DNA of 64,000 nucleotides from Promethearchaeota archaeon (GTDB taxonomy: Archaea; Asgardarchaeota; Lokiarchaeia; Sigyniarchaeales; SOKP01), in NCBI GenBank assembly GCA_016839555.1, contig JAEOUA010000003.1:288001-352000 (forward strand). The letters run 5' to 3'. The number at the start of each line of letters is the position of its first letter. Position 1 is the stretch's first letter. Below are positions 31,477 to 41,623 of this stretch, piece by piece. The notes under the pieces were generated by a model. It saw nothing but the letters and a program-made list of their open reading frames with translations, did not search any database and had not been told where the DNA came from. Made by a program: the position numbers and the translations under genes.

Positions 31477-33003
31477 TTATTTATTAAAAATATCATCAAA
31501 AGTTTTAAAATATTTCTGCTGGTTAATTAAATTATAGAGTTTATAAGAAAAATCATATATCTTATTATAAAATTTATTCTGATTTTCATCTGGGAAATAT
31601 TTCTTTTCGACTTTACATATATTCTCCGCAGCCTCTGAAATATCTGGAAACAATCCAGCGCCAGATGCAGCCAAAATAGCCGCTCCTAAAGAAGTCGCCT
31701 CTTCAATCACATTCCTTACACACACAATATTTAACACATCCGCGATTATTTGGTTCCATAAATCTGAGCGAGCGCCTCCTCCTGTTAACTTCAATTGTAA
31801 GGGCTCTATTCCAATACTTTTAAACACTTCAATATTTTTCTTTATTTCAAACGCAACTCCCTCAAGAATCGATCTATAAAGATCTTTTCGTTCATGACCT
31901 AATGATAATCCAAATAAAATTCCTTTTGAATAGGGATTCCAATGAGGTGCTCCAGCGCCGACAAGGTGTGGAATCATCAATAAACCATTTGCTCCTGAAG
32001 AAGATTCATTTGCTAACGCAGTCATATAATCATAGGGATCAGCACCTTCTTCTTCTGCTTGTTGGCATTCAACTTGTCCTACTTGGTCTCTAAACCATCG
32101 AAGCACAGCGCCTGTGGTGAATACGCTTGCTTCTTGAACCCATGCACCAGGGATTGCATGGCAACTACATAATACCCGCTTTTCTGGATCTAATTTGGGT
32201 TCTTTTAAATATGCTAATATAAAACTTCCTGTACCCGTGGTACATTTGATATCACCTGCTTTACTCACACCTACCCCTAACGCTGCAGATTGCTGATCTC
32301 CTGCGCCCGTAATCACTAAAGTTTTTTTATCAAAAGAAGTTTCATCAGTAACAATTTCTCCAATATCTACGCCACTTTCGACAGGTTCTGGCATCTTATC
32401 GAGATCAATTTCTAATTTGGACGCAATATCTTCAGAATATCTTAGATTATTAATATCAAACAACATAGTTCTACTTAGATTACTAAAATCACTATAAAAT
32501 TTCCCTGTAAGTTTATTAATAATAAAATCAGACACTAAGAGAAATTTATGAGTTTTGTTATATATTTCTGGTTTATTATCTTTAAACCACAAGATTTTTG
32601 TGGCAGAAAAATAGGGATCAATGGTAAGCCCTGTAGTTTTATATATCTTATCAATTCCAACTTTTTGTTTAATAAATTCTACTTGATCTGTGGTTCTTCT
32701 ATCTTGCCATACTAATGCATTATGTAGTGGATTACCTTCTTTATCAACAGGAACTATTGTCTCACGCTGATTAGTTATTGATAGACTTACGATTTCAGTA
32801 CTATCAATCCCACTTTTTTTTAAAGCAGAATCAATAGTTTCTTTAATGGATTTCCACCATATATCTGCGTTCTGCTCCACGTAGGATGGTTTTGGATAAT
32901 GGCTAGCCCATTCACGATAATCCCAAGCTAAAATAGTCCCCGAAATATCAAAAATATATGTGCGACACCCAGTAGTACCTAAATCTAAAGCAGCAACAAA
33001 CAT
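31477..33003 (-). CDS. FGGY-family kinase (xylulokinase/glycerol kinase-like)
   Basis: LDLGTTG, TNQRET, WQDRRT, GDQQ, TGTG and GGGARS motifs. Confidence 0.92.
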   Translation of the reverse strand: MFVAALDLGTTGCRTYIFDISGTILAWDYREWASHYPKPSYVEQNADIWWKSIKETIDSALKKSGIDSTEIVSLSITNQRETIVPVDKEGNPLHNALVWQDRRTTDQVEFIKQKVGIDKIYKTTGLTIDPYFSATKILWFKDNKPEIYNKTHKFLLVSDFIINKLTGKFYSDFSNLSRTMLFDINNLRYSEDIASKLEIDLDKMPEPVESGVDIGEIVTDETSFDKKTLVITGAGDQQSAALGVGVSKAGDIKCTTGTGSFILAYLKEPKLDPEKRVLCSCHAIPGAWVQEASVFTTGAVLRWFRDQVGQVECQQAEEEGADPYDYMTALANESSSGANGLLMIPHLVGAGAPHWNPYSKGILFGLSLGHERKDLYRSILEGVAFEIKKNIEVFKSIGIEPLQLKLTGGGARSDLWNQIIADVLNIVCVRNVIEEATSLGAAILAASGAGLFPDISEAAENICKVEKKYFPDENQNKFYNKIYDFSYKLYNLINQQKYFKTFDDIFNK

Positions 33004-33248: not shown

Positions 33249-33668
33249 TTGATTGTTTTGTCAAATAAAGATACACTATCAAAATTAAAAGCAATTATTC
33301 AAGATTTTACAGATTCTCAAAGCGATGTCCAAGGTCAAATAGTAATAACCTATCCAGGAGGAGTCCCCATAGTTAATACTTGGAAGGGAGGAAAAATTGA
33401 TCCCATTTTAGTTGGAGCTATTTCTGCTGCGGTTAAGCTCACCTTTCGATATCTCTGTGAGCAATTGCGGAAAGGAATATTAAAAAAATTATTTATAAAT
33501 AGCGATTATGGACGAGTAATCATCCAGGATGCTGGTCCGAAAGCAATTTTAACTTCAATAATTGATAAAGAAGCAGATCTATTTAGAATTGCATTTGGTA
33601 TGACCAATCTTGCTATTGAACTCGAGAAATTATTAGAAGATTTCACATTGGAGGTGTCTGATATATAA
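33249..33668 (+). CDS. Roadblock/LC7 domain protein
   Basis: GxPIV...LVGAISAA, I...GRVIIQDAGPKAIL; roadblock secondary-structure pattern. Confidence 0.8.
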   Translation: MIVLSNKDTLSKLKAIIQDFTDSQSDVQGQIVITYPGGVPIVNTWKGGKIDPILVGAISAAVKLTFRYLCEQLRKGILKKLFINSDYGRVIIQDAGPKAILTSIIDKEADLFRIAFGMTNLAIELEKLLEDFTLEVSDI

Positions 33669-33670
33669 AG

Positions 33671-34663
33671 ATGAGTGAGATCATTCAAGAGTATAATTTA
33701 CTCGGGTATTTACAAGAAATAGAAAAAGTTACAGATTTAAATGGATGTTTTTTCATTAATGCGAAGGATGATATTGTAATTGAATCAACGATACCATTTA
33801 GAGTTCCAGATGAAATTCTATGGGAAATAGGGGTTTTACGCGACACTTTTAGGCAATTTTCTAATGGTATAAACCACGGGAAACTTAATGAACTTATGAT
33901 TGAAGGGAGTAAGGGTTATATTTTATTATATGATATTCCTCCTCATTTATTATTGCTTGCTCTAGGATCAGATGATATGAATTTATCATATGTAAGACTC
34001 GCGATGATTGATATTTTAAAAAGGATTAGAGAAGAGATCGCAAAAATCGGAGATAACATTTTAAAAATTCCCGGAAAAGACTTAGGAGCATTAGGAGTAA
34101 AAGAGGGGATTGTACCTACTCTTGTAACTATCACTGAACCTGTAGAAACTCAACCACAACCTCCTAGTATTAAGGTGCCCCCTAAGATTGAAGCTGTTGA
34201 AAAAGAGCCTGTAATATCTCAAGCCGAGATGGAACCAATAGAGCCAGAACAACCTATAGCAGAAAAAGTTGAAATAGGAATTATAAAAGCTGAATTAGTT
34301 GAATCAATTGAGGAACCTTCTTTTGAAGAAAAATTACCCACATTCGAAATAGTTGAAGAAAGCCTAGAAGCTATGATAAAATCATTAGAAATTAAGGAAT
34401 TGAAAGAGAGATACCAAACACTTGGATCAATATTTAATGGATTGAAAGCTCAACTTGAAGAAATTACTGGAAATGAATTAAGTAAATTACTTGAACAATT
34501 AAAAGATGCGATTTTATTAAATATAGGTACTTCTCTTGCCCTTTTTGATATTTCAAAAGCCGAAAAAGAGTTAAATAAATTAAATAGAAAATTGGGTATT
34601 GCAGAAATACAACAATATAAAAATAGAATAGATAATTGGTCAAGTAGAATTATAAAAATATGA
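33671..34663 (+). CDS. Protein with an N-terminal roadblock-like domain, a Pro/Glu-rich linker and a C-terminal helical domain
   Basis: LNELMIEGSKGYILLY...LLLLALG roadblock-like segment; P/E-rich linker. Confidence 0.7.
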   Translation: MSEIIQEYNLLGYLQEIEKVTDLNGCFFINAKDDIVIESTIPFRVPDEILWEIGVLRDTFRQFSNGINHGKLNELMIEGSKGYILLYDIPPHLLLLALGSDDMNLSYVRLAMIDILKRIREEIAKIGDNILKIPGKDLGALGVKEGIVPTLVTITEPVETQPQPPSIKVPPKIEAVEKEPVISQAEMEPIEPEQPIAEKVEIGIIKAELVESIEEPSFEEKLPTFEIVEESLEAMIKSLEIKELKERYQTLGSIFNGLKAQLEEITGNELSKLLEQLKDAILLNIGTSLALFDISKAEKELNKLNRKLGIAEIQQYKNRIDNWSSRIIKI

Positions 34664-34683
34664 AGAGGTGAAAAATAGAAAAT

Positions 34684-35181
34684 ATGAGTTTGATGATATA
34701 TACAATTGATGGGAAGGATATTGTACCTGTTAATGATATTAAATTAAAAGAAGATAAAATCTATATAATAATTGATATACATGCGAAACGTCCGAAAATA
34801 TGGATTTGGAGTGGGGCAAACTCGAGTATGATAGATAAATATCATGCAGGCGTGAGTGCAACCAAAATTAAATCCAGAAAAAAATTATATGGAGCAAGTA
34901 TTGAAGTAGTGGAAAGTGGAGCAGAACCAGAACAATTTCCCAATTTGTCTGAGGCACAACTAATAGAAGCGACTGAAGAAGAATTTGAAGAAAAATTACG
35001 TATATTTGAACCAAAAATAGAAGAAATATCAGCTTCTCAAGAAATGCCTGCAATTAAATCAGAAATGATGGCTCAAACAGATAGAGAGAGCAAGAATAAA
35101 TTGAAAAAATTTTTGAGTGAAATTTCAAGAGATCTAAATAATATTAAACAAAAAATAGATGATTTTATCCAAAATATATAA
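34684..35181 (+). CDS. Single-domain gelsolin-like protein with a C-terminal coiled coil
   Basis: IYIIID...IWIWSGANS...KYHA...IEVVESGAEPEQF gelsolin signature. Confidence 0.75.
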   Translation: MSLMIYTIDGKDIVPVNDIKLKEDKIYIIIDIHAKRPKIWIWSGANSSMIDKYHAGVSATKIKSRKKLYGASIEVVESGAEPEQFPNLSEAQLIEATEEEFEEKLRIFEPKIEEISASQEMPAIKSEMMAQTDRESKNKLKKFLSEISRDLNNIKQKIDDFIQNI

Positions 35182-35217
35182 AATATTAAATAATAAAAAA
35201 TCTAAAAGGTAAATAAA

Positions 35218-36537
35218 ATGATTGATGCAGGAGTAGCTTTAACAACCGAATTTGATGGTTATAAAGCAGGTAGGATTGTTATTAAGGAAGCATTAGGAGG
35301 TATTAGTCTAAAACCAAAATTAGCGATCCTAGCTGTGGACTCTTTATCACGTGTACAATATAATTATAATGAAGTATTAAAAGGTGTAAGGGAAGAGCTT
35401 GGTTCAGATGTAACTTTAATTGGTAGTACTGCTAATGGTATTTTAGTAAACAATAGATATGCATTTAGAAGTGTTGGGTTAATGTTAATAGGTGGTGATA
35501 TAAATATTGATATTTCTTTTAATTACCCTGAATCTAAATTGGATTATGAGAATATCGCAAAATCGATATATCAAAGAAGCAGTGGATTACTCCCAAAAGA
35601 AAATCGATTCATGTTGATGTTTCAAGATGGATATAAATTTCCACCTGAGGTATTTAAGAAGCAAGAAATGTTAAATATGAGAATTATATCGTTAATGTCT
35701 GGATTAGTATCTCGATTCTTTAAAAAGCAACTAGATGATTTTAAAGAAGATGGAATGGGGTTGACAAGTGCTCAAGAATTGTTAGAAAGCTTATATAATA
35801 AAGGTTTTGATTTACCGATAGTGGGAAATGTTGCTACTGATGTTCGAAACTATGAATCTGTTGAATTTTATAACGATCAAATTGGAGATGACAATATTGT
35901 TGGGGTTATTTTATCTGGAGAAGGAGCGACAAAATTTGGATTTGGATTTGGTGCAGGAGCAGAATCTACAGGAAAAACCTTAAAGCCAACTAAAAAAATT
36001 GGTGGCTTTTTCCTAAAAATTGATGGAAAACCGGCATTAGAAGGATTTTGTAATGCAGCAAGTATAAAATTAGAATCATTAGAGCAATTAAGACCATACG
36101 GGTACCAAAATCCTTATGTTTCTTTAGGATTTAGAGAGAAAAGTAATGGAGAGGAGATTATTCATCTTTCAGGGCTTCTTACAAACCCTAATTTATCAAA
36201 TCTGGTAACCACTAGTTTCCCATTTAATTATAAAATACCCGAAGAAATTGAGATTTTTAGGAGCAATATTAAAGTACTTAAAAGAACTACGGAAAGTGCG
36301 ATAAATCAAGCTATAGAAAATATCTCTAAACCCAAATTTCTGCTTGGATTTGATTGTTTTAATAGGGCCATGTCTTATGGAGATATGATGCCTGAAATAA
36401 TTGAAAAAATCGATGATACTGTTGGTAAAGATCTCCCTCGAATGATTTTTGGTGCAGGTGGTGAAATATTTGGTAAGAAAGATTTAGGATACTATAATAA
36501 TAATATGACATTTGTTACTTTAGCGGGTGGAGAATAA
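35218..36537 (+). CDS. FIST (FIST_N/FIST_C) sensory domain protein
   Basis: LIGSTANG, PIVGNVA, IDGKPA, FDCFNR, GGEI and NNMTFV motifs. Confidence 0.85.
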   Translation: MIDAGVALTTEFDGYKAGRIVIKEALGGISLKPKLAILAVDSLSRVQYNYNEVLKGVREELGSDVTLIGSTANGILVNNRYAFRSVGLMLIGGDINIDISFNYPESKLDYENIAKSIYQRSSGLLPKENRFMLMFQDGYKFPPEVFKKQEMLNMRIISLMSGLVSRFFKKQLDDFKEDGMGLTSAQELLESLYNKGFDLPIVGNVATDVRNYESVEFYNDQIGDDNIVGVILSGEGATKFGFGFGAGAESTGKTLKPTKKIGGFFLKIDGKPALEGFCNAASIKLESLEQLRPYGYQNPYVSLGFREKSNGEEIIHLSGLLTNPNLSNLVTTSFPFNYKIPEEIEIFRSNIKVLKRTTESAINQAIENISKPKFLLGFDCFNRAMSYGDMMPEIIEKIDDTVGKDLPRMIFGAGGEIFGKKDLGYYNNNMTFVTLAGGE

Positions 36538-36761
36538 CTAATCTCTTTCCCATCAAAAAGAATTTTTTTTATTCTTATTTTAAATTTCTTTTTTATTTTT
36601 ATAATATTAGTTTAATTTTAAAAAATTTATATTTTAACCTTCGAAGTCACTAATTTATTTAAAATAATTAATATCTATTAATTATTTTTAAATTTATCTA
36701 TTTCATATCATTTAAATATCCTTATTATCTTTTCTTTATACAAAATTAAGGGTATGATTAA

Positions 36762-37937
36762 ATGAAAATTGATGATATTTTAGAAAAAGGACTACAAGAT
36801 TTCAAAAAGGAAGATCAAACTGGCGTAAAAAATGATTTATTTAAGGCAATCAAGGAATCCCTAATGCATCAGTTTAAAGGATGTGATTTATACAGGCAAA
36901 TATGTAAACAGCAGAATTTCAATCCTAATACAGATTTAAAAAGTTTAGATGATTTAGCTATGATACCCTACATAACGACAGCTAATTTTAAGCAAAAGAA
37001 AGGATCTCCCAAGAAGTTCTTAACTGTACCTGAAAGTGAAATTCAAATCTGGTCGAGATCAACAGGCACATCAGGAGATCCATCTATTGTAGGGAGAGAT
37101 CATACAAATATAGTAAGATATGTTAATATGTTTAGTAATGTAATAGAAGATGTTGGATTAGACAATTACTATTGGAGTCTTATGTTTATTCCTGAACCCC
37201 AAAAAGAATATAGCATTGATGATAAAATTAAAGACCCAACGATCATGTTCTCGCTAATGATGCATTTTGTGAATACATCTGAAGAGAAGGTGTTTTGCTT
37301 GAAGATGCCCAGCCCAGAAGAAATGAAACAAGGGAAAAAAATTGAATTTGATGCACAAAAAACATTCGGTTTCTTAAATTCAAATCCATCACAAAAAGGA
37401 ATAGGGTGGATAACTGGTTCGGTACCTTTAATGTATAAGATTCTATCTGGGTATCACCAACAAACAGGGCAGACTTTTAATGTAGGTAAAAAATCAGTTA
37501 TTTTAACAGGAGGAGGATGGAAAACATTTCAGGGAGATGCAATTTCTCCTGAAGAATTCAGAAGAGATATGGCTAAAATCCTTGGGATCTCTGAAAAGAA
37601 TGTGAGAGATATCTATAGTTTTTCCGAATCAGATGTTATTTTTGTAGAATGTGAAGAACATAATAAACATACTTATCCTTGGCAAGATATAATTGTTAGG
37701 GATGTGGAAACCTTAGAACCTGTAGAAATAGGAGAAAAAGGCTTAGCAAATCTAATAAATCCTCTTGCCCATAGTTATGCCGGCGTATCAATCCTCCAAG
37801 ATGATATCATACGAATTGTAAGTGAAGATGACTGTCCATGTGGAAGAAAGGGTAAGATTATTGAAGTTATTGGTAGAGCAGAAGGCGCGGAAGCAAAAGG
37901 TTGTGGAGTACAATTAGCAGATGAAACTGCAACATAA
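36762..37937 (+). CDS. LuxE-like acyl-protein synthetase (LuxE/PaaK family)
   Basis: STGTSG, TGGGWK, DIYSFSE, SILQDD and C-terminal GRAEGAEAKGC with the acyl-accepting Cys. Confidence 0.88.
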   Translation: MKIDDILEKGLQDFKKEDQTGVKNDLFKAIKESLMHQFKGCDLYRQICKQQNFNPNTDLKSLDDLAMIPYITTANFKQKKGSPKKFLTVPESEIQIWSRSTGTSGDPSIVGRDHTNIVRYVNMFSNVIEDVGLDNYYWSLMFIPEPQKEYSIDDKIKDPTIMFSLMMHFVNTSEEKVFCLKMPSPEEMKQGKKIEFDAQKTFGFLNSNPSQKGIGWITGSVPLMYKILSGYHQQTGQTFNVGKKSVILTGGGWKTFQGDAISPEEFRRDMAKILGISEKNVRDIYSFSESDVIFVECEEHNKHTYPWQDIIVRDVETLEPVEIGEKGLANLINPLAHSYAGVSILQDDIIRIVSEDDCPCGRKGKIIEVIGRAEGAEAKGCGVQLADETAT

Positions 37938-38057: not shown

Positions 38058-39770
38058 TTGAAGAGAAAATTAAAAATACCGGGATTTATTTTTAAGCCGG
38101 TCTATTCTGAAAATACTACAAAAGAAATAGTAAAACGACAAGATGATGTATTAGAATTCGATTTTCCTATATTCGATAAAAAGACTGTATTAGATACTGC
38201 AGAAAAACTAGCTTTAAGAAAAAGAAGAGCTCATGATAGGGATTTGAATGAATTATTTGAAATAATGGATCAAGTAGGTGACTTATGGCTTGATCCTAAT
38301 TATGACCTTAGAAAAGAGGTCTTAGAAGTCATTCCTATGATGACGGGACAATCAAGAGAATTATGTGAAATCGAATTTTTAGGGACAATTAGACTTTGGA
38401 ATAAGAAGAACTCGGAATTACAATTAAAAGGCGAAATAGGAGGAAAAGAATACTTAGAAGATTGGGTTCAGAGAGGAACTGCAAGAATGCATGCACAACC
38501 TAGAGGAGTTGTCCTTCATAATTTGGCGGGAAATTCATTCGGTTTGGGTCCTACCTCTCTATCATATGGTTTAATAACTAAAAATGTAAATCTAATAAAA
38601 CTTTCCCATCAAGAACCCTATGTATCTGTTAAATTATGTGAATCTATTGTAGAAGTAGATAAGAAATTATCAAAAGAAATAGCTGCATTTTATTGGAAAG
38701 GAAGTAGAGGAGATATTTATGACGATCTATTTAATTCCGGTAATATTAATTGCGTTCTCGCATGGGGTGCCATCCAATCAATCGAAGATATTAGAAGGAG
38801 AGCGAATCGTTATGGTATAAAAATAATAGATAATGGTCCTAAACTTTCCTTCAGTGTTCTTTCAGAAGATACTTTTAACAATAAAAATATTATGCAAGAA
38901 ATAGCTCAAAAAATAGCAATCGATGTAGTATACTGGAATCAGAGAGCGTGTTTAAGCCCCAGAGTTATTTATATTATAGATAAGCCTCATAAATCAGCAA
39001 TTTCGAATAATATAAATAATAATTTATCAAAAGACAATAATAATGAATTATTGAATGATTCATCAATAAACACCTTATTTGCAGATTCTATTAATACAAT
39101 TTTTCATACTAATGAATCTGGACGTTATGATATGAGTATTCTCATGAAACGTTCCTTAAAAATGCTCAGATATAGTTTTTCTGAATTATCTGCCATGGGA
39201 TTTGCAAAAATGTTAGCAAATGGGCTAAGAAATGCTGACCAGATGCTTCCGCGTGCAAATTTGACCCAAACAGATAATTTAGAAATGCAAAGAAAACGAG
39301 AATATTTCTTTATAAATTACGTTACTCAAAAAAGAGCAATAATTTTATATCCTCCTAAAAATAAATTAGATTGGACTGTTGTATTCATGCGGACCTTACC
39401 TAATCTGAAGGAAATAAATATGTGCCAAGATAGATTTGTGATTTGTTGTAGAATCTCAAGTATTCAAGATTTAATCTATTCAATAAGAAAACAAGAGTTA
39501 CAACAATATTTACAAACTGTTGCTATATATGGTAATGATAATTTTGTAAAGGATGTTGCCGAAGAACTGTCAATTTTAGGCGCATTTAGATTTCCAAGGG
39601 CAGGAGAGCATAATTTGAATGACTTCGGTCTTCCATGGGATGGTAAATATGTTTTGCAAGATATGATAAGATGGTGTTATATTTGTTTTCCTGAAGAGCA
39701 ACCCATGGGAAATAATAATAAACAGAGCTCACTTTTTAAAGGAAAAACCTATCCTGAAAGAAATCAATAA
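38058..39770 (+). CDS. LuxC-like acyl-CoA/acyl-protein reductase with an internal insertion
   Basis: PRGVVLHNLAGN, KN.NLIK, AWG, GPKLSF, QRACLSP (catalytic Cys), YLQTVA and PWDG motifs. Confidence 0.88.
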   Translation: MKRKLKIPGFIFKPVYSENTTKEIVKRQDDVLEFDFPIFDKKTVLDTAEKLALRKRRAHDRDLNELFEIMDQVGDLWLDPNYDLRKEVLEVIPMMTGQSRELCEIEFLGTIRLWNKKNSELQLKGEIGGKEYLEDWVQRGTARMHAQPRGVVLHNLAGNSFGLGPTSLSYGLITKNVNLIKLSHQEPYVSVKLCESIVEVDKKLSKEIAAFYWKGSRGDIYDDLFNSGNINCVLAWGAIQSIEDIRRRANRYGIKIIDNGPKLSFSVLSEDTFNNKNIMQEIAQKIAIDVVYWNQRACLSPRVIYIIDKPHKSAISNNINNNLSKDNNNELLNDSSINTLFADSINTIFHTNESGRYDMSILMKRSLKMLRYSFSELSAMGFAKMLANGLRNADQMLPRANLTQTDNLEMQRKREYFFINYVTQKRAIILYPPKNKLDWTVVFMRTLPNLKEINMCQDRFVICCRISSIQDLIYSIRKQELQQYLQTVAIYGNDNFVKDVAEELSILGAFRFPRAGEHNLNDFGLPWDGKYVLQDMIRWCYICFPEEQPMGNNNKQSSLFKGKTYPERNQ

Positions 39771-39802: not shown

Positions 39803-41623
39803 TTATACTAATAATACATCTAAAAATTTTTCTATATAGTGAGATTGTCCCTCTTTTTTGTAATTAAAAATTATTTTTATATTAATCATTTTGGGATTAG
39901 TCCCTCTATCAGTTTTTTTTTCAAAATTATATTTTAAAATAAGATTCTGGTTTGGCTCTAATTTCATCCCTCGTTCTTCTTGATTTTCACTCGAAATGTT
40001 GAATATTTTAACAGGGTATTTAATATCTATATTTAAATTTTCGATTAAAACTCCAGAGATATTACGAATATGAATAAATAATTTTATGTCATAATCATCA
40101 GACCCTTCTAATTTTTCAGAGATCTTCCATTTCTTCAAAAATAAAAGATCTTCAACCTCAAAAGCGGATGAGGTATCAGCGGCTATAATATTATTAGATA
40201 TTATTGCATTCAAATCTCCTTTTTCTATGAGTTTTTCTATATAAGGTGTAAATTTTTCTTCATTTATATGAAATTTTTCAGATATTTCTTTAATATTAAT
40301 AGGCCCCTCTACTAATTTAGCTTCTATCCATTTTTTTACTTTTGAAAAACTAAGTTCGGGTTTTTTCTCTAACATAAAATCTAATAATAATTTTCGTTTC
40401 CTCTCCGAGTCTCTGTTATCAATGAAATCAATCTCATTTAGTATTTGATAACAATGTAAATATATATTATCTTGTAAGTTCGCTTTTAATATTGATTTTA
40501 ATTTAATGTAATTCTGTGAGTTTAAATTCTCTAATATTTTTTTAGTTAACTTAGAGATTAAAGAATTCATTAATTTCGGATTGGATAAATTTATTTTTTT
40601 GATGACATTATTTAAAGTTCTAATCATAGCATCTGAATCAGGATTAATTATTTTAAATAGGTGATAAAACCGCTCAAATTCATTTTTAATTACTGAAGTT
40701 TTCAGAATTTCTTCAATTGGATCCACATTGTCTAACTCACCGTTTTCTATGACTTGGAATAATGCATCATCAAATATTCCTTTATGATACTCTAAAATTT
40801 CTTCAATTATATCCTCTATTGCCTCTCTTACTAAATGATCTTCATAATCTAATAGATGGAGTAAATCTCTTGACAATGGTTTAATTAAATCTTTTCTATG
40901 AAGTCCCAATTTTCCAATTAAAAAGATTATATTCTCTTGAGTTGGCCATTCATTATTCAGAAGTGAATTTATTAATTTTTTAAGATCCTCAACTGTATAT
41001 GTTTTTATAAATAATCTTAATAACAAATCCAAACCTTCTTTTTTTACATCAACATCTTTTTCACTATAAAGTATTTTTAATTGTTCTTCAAAGCCTTTAA
41101 TAAAAGTTGGTTTATTAATAAGAACCTCATCTAAGAACTGGATTATTTCCATCCTTACATTCCAGGATTCGTCTGTTAAACTGGATATCAGTGCTTTAAT
41201 CATCCTTTTTTCTTTATTTGTTAGGTTATAATATAATTTTATTAAAAATCCAACAACTTTCTCTCTAATCCCTAATTCAAAATCTTCAATCTTAGATGTG
41301 AGTAAATCTATTTCTTTATAAATAGATTCCATTTCTCGATTAATTTTTTTCGAGAAAATTTTTATTGCTAAATCCTGAATCGTTTCATCATAATCATCAA
41401 TCCAAGGTTTTATCTTTTCAAGCTGTTCATCTGATAAAAATGCTCCTTTTTTTTGAAGTTCCGTGATTCCTTCTAAGATCTGTGGAAATGATGTATAATT
41501 ATCTTCATTCAGTAAAGAAACTAGGTCATTTAAGGCACTTTGAAATTCTCCTAATTCCATTTTTTTTTTAATGTCAGTTAAATCGATCTCTGTAATTTCT
41601 ATCAACTCCTTTTTAATAGTCAC
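39803..41623 (-). CDS. HEAT-repeat solenoid + PCI-like winged helix + C-terminal Ig-like beta-sandwich protein
   Basis: DESWNVR, DVDVKKE and DHLVRE HEAT turns; INIKEISEKF...LIEKGDLNAII; IKLFIHIRN...LEPNQ beta-rich tail. Confidence 0.7.
   Translation of the reverse strand: MTIKKELIEITEIDLTDIKKKMELGEFQSALNDLVSLLNEDNYTSFPQILEGITELQKKGAFLSDEQLEKIKPWIDDYDETIQDLAIKIFSKKINREMESIYKEIDLLTSKIEDFELGIREKVVGFLIKLYYNLTNKEKRMIKALISSLTDESWNVRMEIIQFLDEVLINKPTFIKGFEEQLKILYSEKDVDVKKEGLDLLLRLFIKTYTVEDLKKLINSLLNNEWPTQENIIFLIGKLGLHRKDLIKPLSRDLLHLLDYEDHLVREAIEDIIEEILEYHKGIFDDALFQVIENGELDNVDPIEEILKTSVIKNEFERFYHLFKIINPDSDAMIRTLNNVIKKINLSNPKLMNSLISKLTKKILENLNSQNYIKLKSILKANLQDNIYLHCYQILNEIDFIDNRDSERKRKLLLDFMLEKKPELSFSKVKKWIEAKLVEGPINIKEISEKFHINEEKFTPYIEKLIEKGDLNAIISNNIIAADTSSAFEVEDLLFLKKWKISEKLEGSDDYDIKLFIHIRNISGVLIENLNIDIKYPVKIFNISSENQEERGMKLEPNQNLILKYNFEKKTDRGTNPKMINIKIIFNYKKEGQSHYIEKFLDVLLV

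Follow-up and report, generated by a model that had tools for sequence, protein, structure and literature searches.

A conserved Lokiarchaeia gene cassette joining a FIST protein, two roadblock proteins, a LuxE/LuxC pair and an accessory gelsolin

The 64,000-nucleotide stretch of contig JAEOUA010000003.1 analysed here (hereafter the window), from a Promethearchaeota archaeon of the class Lokiarchaeia, harbours a conserved unit of seven genes, which encode two roadblock proteins (RB1 and RB2), a one-domain gelsolin, a stand-alone FIST protein, LuxE- and LuxC-type enzymes and, in convergent orientation, a HEAT-repeat protein. The original prediction had recognised the first four of these genes and interpreted them as a sensor-to-actin signalling module. 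The four forward-strand open reading frames, their co-orientation and their intergenic gaps of 2, 20 and 36 nt were all confirmed; the four genes are not, however, the whole unit, as luxE and luxC on the same strand and the convergent HEAT gene belong to it too.

The explanation considered best, which we hold tentatively and at slightly under an even chance, is that at the core of the cassette a complex of FIST with an RB1/RB2 heterodimer would work together with LuxE/LuxC, a reductase turning acids into aldehydes, whose product FIST would read; the gelsolin would be a later, optional output to actin. It is preferred because FIST and RB2 are shared by one set of 21 among the 161 genomes, LuxC is present in 20 of these and none of these orthologues was detected elsewhere; because a deep member of the family (genome G006) has one tight FIST-luxE-luxC-RB1-RB2 run; because the main clades agree between the trees of FIST and LuxC and an insertion in LuxC tracks the linkage; because the predicted complex scores 0.85 versus 0.61 for the best control and the RB2 interface is the more conserved part; because the RB2 contact motif recurs in the lone roadblocks that accompany FIST in other Asgard lineages; because Cys380 of FIST aligns with the aldehyde-reactive Cys326 of human FBXO22; and because two other Asgard FIST-roadblock loci adjoin a ligase and an aldehyde-dehydrogenase-family gene.

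In the proposed scheme, LuxE would convert some carboxylic acid into an activated thioester for reduction to an aldehyde by LuxC; both enzymes have their catalytic residues. FIST, as FBXO22 suggests, might then sense the aldehyde or an acyl intermediate in the pocket of Cys380. RB2, aided by RB1, is predicted to dock via its alpha1/alpha3 face beside the helix following Cys380, which would keep the alpha2 face, the side that contacts GTPases in MglB-type complexes, available to a partner from another locus. More speculatively, the larger Lokiarchaeia clade could have gained the helical tail of RB2, a HEAT scaffold and a calcium-independent gelsolin as an output towards lokiactin. All the parts come from known families. 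The searched literature did not describe them in combination and contained no paper on FIST with LuxE and LuxC, on archaeal KaiC with FIST and roadblock or on a FIST domain with a roadblock (the search did not cover a 2017 mBio paper on KaiC).

Distribution and gene order of the cassette

In a survey of 161 Lokiarchaeia-class genomes, FIST orthologues (E below 1e-70) were detected in 21 and the RB2 orthologue in the same 21, accompanied by luxC in 20 (the genome without it is 68% complete, with a contig that stops after FIST), gelsolin in 18 and the HEAT gene in 17; since these are related, fragmented metagenome-assembled genomes, some with likely mis-binned contigs, the counts represent a pattern rather than independent events, a point to be added to those weighed below against the preferred explanation. 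Orthologues of FIST, RB2, luxC, gelsolin and HEAT were found in none of the other 140 genomes, including 93-98% complete ones of the same genus, and the occurrence is patchy, with 1 of 54, 1 of 10 and 2 of 6 genomes positive in three genera.

The commonest gene order is RB1-RB2-gelsolin-FIST-luxE-luxC with HEAT convergent, and it is also seen, as far as their length reaches, in ten more metagenome loci. G006 has the order FIST-luxE-luxC-RB1-RB2 (gaps of 36, 51 and 51 nt), with a short RB2 and no gelsolin, and G001 has the same order split over two contigs. The order in G017 is luxC-HEAT-RB1-RB2-gelsolin-FIST, in G022 and one ENA locus RB2 immediately precedes FIST, and a Logan locus reads FIST-luxE-RB1-RB2; RB1 adjoins RB2 in all loci read. 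Because gene order is maintained in ~20 genomes, the arrangement is not due to chance. Inheritance of the signalling module and the reductase pair as one island, neighbours by history and without functional coupling, is very unlikely in our estimate: the patchy distribution would fit gain and loss of a block, and both modules also occur apart, but the linkage outlasts three gene orders and divergence to 35% identity, the LuxC insertion follows it, and no flanking genes are conserved around the cassette loci.

The FIST and LuxC trees (midpoint-rooted, that of LuxC a quick one) have their main clades in common, and the most distant group is the gelsolin-less G006/G001. The G022/X040 pair, likewise without gelsolin, meets the gelsolin-bearing lineages in an unresolved fork. 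Altogether, the cassettes of G006, G001 and G022 and those at two metagenomic loci lack the gelsolin, and luxE/luxC are retained in almost all gelsolin-less loci. Because both the G006/G001 and the G022/X040 groups keep luxE/luxC without it, the gelsolin is dispensable in at least two lineages.

Two cassette contigs resemble other genera far more than they do their own bins: a second contig in G022 (L068, C684) has 80% LuxC identity to the genome of the window, probably through mis-binning or else by recent transfer, and that of G033 (L071, C240) carries a FIST nearly identical to that of G062, by mis-binning or recent transfer. In G041 a decayed second copy (L100:3213-6219) lies 13 kb from the intact one; in it, HEAT and gelsolin are intact and only remnants of FIST (with stops) and luxC are left. 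One genus has, next to the cassette, six to seven similar 180-aa genes arrayed in tandem (L036:375-4906 and L040:3884-8017). Upstream of the cassette in the window, a FGGY carbohydrate kinase gene (31477-33003) is divergent from RB1, a linkage limited to the same genus.

The FIST protein, the roadblock pair and the LuxE/LuxC enzymes

The fourth gene of the cassette (35218..36537, forward strand) encodes a 439-aa protein in which FIST and FIST_C exceed the Pfam cut-off, in agreement with the stand-alone FIST domain originally proposed. Its structural model (predicted local distance difference test, pLDDT, of 93) shows a three-lobed FBXO22/Toblerone-like fold, with FBXO22 as the top match (Z 19.7, root-mean-square deviation 3.5, 278 aligned residues) and chorismatase and cyanuric-acid-hydrolase folds as the next best. 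The NosP-like role in nitric oxide or heme sensing that had been considered for it found no support at the level of family: the score against NCBIfam NF041558 is 12.3 bits versus a cut-off of 450, and NosP membership was rejected. No histidine kinase is co-encoded with FIST at the locus or conserved in related loci. The protein carries a helical insert of ~45 aa (at about 140-185), and among orthologues the Cys380-x-x-Arg383 motif and His316 are invariant and Cys278 is near-invariant. Aligned through a broad FIST profile, Cys380 corresponds to residue 326 of full-length FBXO22, the cysteine with which aldehyde degraders react reversibly to give hemithioacetals (bioRxiv 10.1101/2025.08.29.673087).

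The two roadblock genes lie upstream on the same strand. RB1 (33249..33668, 139 aa) has an MglB/LAMTOR-type fold with small residues on the alpha2 helix; its true start may be the TTG at 33258 instead, because orthologues start close to that position. RB2 (33671..34663, 330 aa) consists, as originally described, of an N-terminal roadblock, a P/E linker and a C-terminal helical domain of ~100 aa, which is absent in G006/G001. RB1 and the N-terminus of RB2 belong to the Roadblock/LC7 group, their profiles matching the Asgard roadblock structures 9jue, 7f8m and 7yh1 (E 2.6e-19 and 5e-6), and are related to each other (hhalign 92%, 17% identity), RB1 being the probable heterodimer partner of RB2. 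For the RB2 tail, the Atlas search gave no usable match. The same domain ends several Lokiarchaeia proteins of 500-900 aa (G000:C10:294631-296478 in the genome of the window, L126-L138), one type of which often has a gene for a 300-440 aa gelsolin no more than about 4 kb away; neither a consistent neighbour accounting for the domain nor a family name was found for these paralogues.

In three-chain prediction, FIST with RB1 and RB2 reached a score of 0.85, and the best of three controls, which still contained RB2, the bearer of most contacts, reached 0.61. The mark applied to such scores is attained by 58 of 80 solved complexes and 2 of 110 mismatched pairs, counts that are only a rough guide for the FIST-RB1-RB2 job. 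Contact agreement between runs was at least 76% and partner pLDDT at least 88. The predicted FIST-docking residues of RB2 (16-22, 74, 78 and 103-114) show higher conservation than the other positions of the domain (0.79 vs 0.67; 0.79 vs 0.51 for charged residues only), and the contact motif, judged by eye, is found again in the single roadblocks that other Asgard lineages encode next to FIST. The contacts fall on the alpha1/alpha3 side, opposite the GTPase-binding face known from MglB-type roadblocks (PMC3747258), and extend to FIST residues 384-393, right after Cys380/Arg383. Recall of a like complex by the predictor is unlikely, though possible, because the only FIST structures retrieved were FBXO22 complexes. 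The model thus supports binding of FIST to the roadblock pair, an interaction that the original prediction had anticipated.

That prediction had also pointed to the lack of a kinase or GTPase neighbour, and none is present among the cassette genes. Of 39 loci, many of them incomplete, only 3 have a small GTPase adjoining the cassette, two of these three being one lineage, and a conserved partner GTPase was rejected. No Ras-family gene is found anywhere in the window; a GTPase acting in trans could be among the 63 Ras-family matches in the rest of the genome. Asgard roadblocks are seldom encoded alongside identifiable partners (PMC10933270). The cassette names a specific one, FIST, with an interface predicted at the level of residues.

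Downstream of FIST, after a 224-nt forward-strand spacer with T-runs (36538..36761) that may mark the end of a four-gene transcript in this genome (the corresponding spacer of G006 is 36 nt), follow luxE (36762..37937) and luxC (38058..39770), both on the forward strand. The adenylation loop and the C-terminal GC acyl-carrier Cys of LuxE and the catalytic Cys298 of LuxC are all retained; the two proteins exceed Pfam cut-offs and fall below the NCBIfam equivalog cut-offs for lux proteins. In luminous bacteria, LuxE and LuxC produce aldehydes, passing acyl groups between cysteines (PMC9157457). The cassette LuxC has a specific insertion of 55-85 aa ending in a conserved helix (about 359-376). 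In FIST-linked LuxC proteins, 75-104 residues separate the catalytic Cys from the next helix and the conserved helix is present in 19 of 19, compared with 18-39 residues and no such helix in all 12 unlinked Asgard LuxC proteins. The unlinked LuxC of X246/G243, which nests in the linked clade, lacks the helix as well as FIST/roadblock neighbours; it amounts to one loss event only, yet the pattern would be expected of a docking element.

The same co-occurrence and insertion data would fit a reverse wiring, in which FIST senses another ligand (amino acid, heme or redox) and the FIST-roadblock complex controls LuxE/LuxC via the LuxC helix, the lipid or aldehyde product being the output. NosP-like FIST proteins regulate a neighbouring enzyme (PMC8846402), His316 of FIST is invariant, and no LuxD (PF02273), luciferase (PF00296) or acyl carrier that could give the reductase another use was found in this genome, which is 92% complete. 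Such wiring nevertheless leaves the restriction of gelsolin and HEAT to cassette genomes unexplained, and no transporter, heme or amino-acid gene is conserved near the cassette loci as a source of ligand; we regard it as possible, but on balance doubtful. With the preferred explanation it shares a FIST-roadblock sensor tied to LuxE/LuxC chemistry, which is the most likely core of the cassette. Given the transfer of acyl groups between LuxE and LuxC cysteines (PMC9157457), the pair might alternatively be a protein-acylation relay that lipidates a cassette protein, the roadblock complex being membrane-anchored like LAMTOR1. Cys380 and Cys278 of FIST and a near-invariant Cys70 of RB1 would suit such a role; LuxC, however, keeps the reductase catalytic core, and Cys70 is absent in G006/G001. 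We know of no precedent for such a relay and consider it highly improbable, slightly more so than an uncoupled island.

The nearest relatives of the cassette FIST, from other Asgard lineages, have the ~45-residue helical insert in common, which bacterial-type FISTs lack. Their loci are KaiC-roadblock-FIST clusters, often with a small GTPase, and at two of them (L055:3984-10421 and L077:817-6912, with a longin-like gene close by) the genes lying divergently to the cluster encode an AMP-binding ligase and a member of the aldehyde dehydrogenase family, a pair not orthologous to luxE/luxC. Because the relatives reside in such clusters, two beside a ligase and aldehyde dehydrogenase, the FIST-roadblock pair appears to be the oldest part of the system and its tie to acyl/aldehyde enzymes recurrent, not universal. 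Clusters of the KaiC-roadblock-FIST-small GTPase type (L057-L064, L073 and L074, other Asgard families) come with a divergent winged-helix/UFL1-like gene in one variety and with an MFS permease in another. In G336 (L066:8356-12303), a FIST fused to PAS/GAF and histidine kinase domains is followed by a ferritin-like gene and is convergent on a Ras-family gene. A 95-member Atlas cluster annotated as an aldehyde dehydrogenase family protein fused to FIST (545 aa, too short for both full domains) is a lead only.

Several observations weigh against coupling of FIST to the reductase. Many FIST-roadblock modules have no adjoining reductase, unlinked LuxC occurs in many Asgards, the Logan locus has no adjoining luxC, and in the genome of the window itself FIST and luxE are 224 nt apart. 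In the predicted complex, the FIST and RB1 sides of the interface are at background conservation (0.69 vs 0.70 and 0.67 vs 0.69). That FIST reads the reductase product is attractive by analogy with FBXO22 but unproven, because the Cys-x-x-Arg motif is general to FIST domains and therefore does not single out aldehydes as the ligand. To our knowledge, most FIST domains, that of human FBXO22 among them, have no known natural ligand. The aldehyde data on FBXO22 derive from synthetic drugs (bioRxiv 10.1101/2025.08.29.673087). In the cassette, an enzyme pair that forms aldehydes is encoded next to a FIST with a conserved cysteine that, in the human protein, reacts with aldehydes. The six co-oriented proteins look soluble and amenable to in vitro tests.

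The accessory gelsolin and HEAT genes

The gelsolin fold originally predicted for the third gene product (34684..35181, forward strand, 165 aa) is corroborated by a Pfam match (E 4e-4) and by profile comparison with Thor 2DGel (7c2h, E 2.7e-11). The W-x-G core and the E-P-x-x-F end are present, and an acidic linker leads to a C-terminal amphipathic helix of roughly 25 residues. In an alignment of its core with Asgard gelsolins that bind actin, Asp51 falls at the type-II Glu position, and the type-I calcium Asp that bridges to actin is replaced by Lys63, which is invariant. This position of Lys63 suggests that binding may be calcium-independent or weak.

Small gelsolin-plus-helix proteins lie within chemotaxis clusters in 10 of 10 such loci read (L088-L097 from G083, G129, G041, G069, G029, G062, G153, G152, G067 and G106), which contain a CheW-CheC fusion, CheR, CheB, CheD and sometimes roadblock-Ras; tblastn detected no such gelsolin-chemotaxis cluster in the genome of the window. 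Because this type of gelsolin recurs in signalling operons, analogy favours an output role in the cassette. The gelsolin tree did not separate the cassette and chemotaxis types as sisters or otherwise.

A nutrient sensor acting through the roadblock pair on gelsolin and actin could be the main purpose of the cassette, with luxE/luxC secondary. Gelsolin stands between RB2 and FIST in 18 of the 21 genomes, its orthologue was not found outside cassette genomes, the recurrence within chemotaxis clusters points the same way, and the genome encodes actin-family proteins. The deepest members and the G022/X040 clade nevertheless keep luxE/luxC without gelsolin, and the long helix of the gelsolin bears an invariant Lys at the type-I calcium/actin site; we judge this purpose unlikely. 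Of the sensor-to-actin module originally put forward, the domain assignments, the adjacency of FIST, roadblock and gelsolin (18 of 21 genomes) and the FIST-roadblock interaction (as a prediction) hold, and the gelsolin as a core component is not supported, since it is absent in several loci and it is luxE/luxC that track FIST. As a derived output, the circuit is possible. Its fullest version, namely that an aldehyde messenger made by LuxE/LuxC is caught reversibly at Cys380 and relayed by the roadblock heterodimer to a calcium-independent gelsolin remodelling lokiactin, seems to us similarly improbable. If the gelsolin is wired in, the cassette would give the Asgard actin cytoskeleton a concrete input; if the aldehyde version is true, Asgard archaea would possess a circuit leading from a metabolite to the cytoskeleton, and aldehydes would be suggested as natural FIST ligands generally.

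The seventh gene (39803..41623, reverse strand), convergent on luxE/luxC, encodes a HEAT-repeat protein with a winged helix and a beta-rich C-terminal part and was found in none of the 140 genomes outside the cassette set. The Atlas search yielded no usable match for it, and its identification as an adaptin was not adopted, since only weak HEAT-type matches were obtained and PP2A-A scores better. A single-sequence structure model (pLDDT 43) was discarded.

Comparison with known systems

Like MglA/MglB and the actinobacterial conservons, the cassette co-encodes a roadblock dimer with a sensor, and the model leaves the top face of the dimer free for a P-loop NTPase. It differs in having two divergent roadblocks, a FIST sensor, a reductase pair and a gelsolin. 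The conservon set comprises the CvnA kinase, CvnB roadblock, CvnC and CvnD GTPase (PMC13343842, PMC3747258); no Pfam or NCBIfam match to a CvnA-type kinase or CvnC was obtained among the cassette genes, no extra gene is conserved across the loci, and a small GTPase is not a cassette member.

NosP-NahK and other FIST sensors (PMC8846402) share with the cassette protein a stand-alone FIST-FIST_C architecture with Cys-x-x-Arg and Gly-Glu motifs. The cassette FIST, however, comes without a histidine kinase or cyclase, has the archaeal helical insert and has a roadblock dimer as its predicted partner. Human FBXO22 (PDB 8ua3, 8s7e), its best structural match, is not its nearest sequence relative (10-15% identity), and the F-box is absent from the cassette protein. 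As in LuxCDE of luminous bacteria (PDB 7xc6; PMC9157457), LuxE and LuxC are adjacent and their catalytic cysteines intact, while LuxD, luciferase and an acyl carrier were not detected in the genome and the cassette LuxC has its 55-85 aa insertion.

Among the Asgard gelsolins ProGel, 1DGelX and 2DGel (PMC7444086, PMC9433394), Thor 2DGel is the closest to the cassette gelsolin in its core, but that protein is defined by two domains, a WH2-like linker and the type-I calcium Asp, in place of which the cassette gelsolin has one domain and Lys63. It resembles 1DGelX, compared by architecture only, in its single domain and helical tail, but has just 165 aa and a tail of ~25 aa; separate 400-aa one-domain gelsolins of the same genome fit 1DGelX better. 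Finally, the archaeal KaiC-roadblock-FIST(-GTPase) clusters likewise place an insert-bearing FIST beside an RB2-like roadblock, whereas the cassette does without KaiC and GTPase and adds a second roadblock, LuxE/LuxC, a gelsolin and the HEAT protein.

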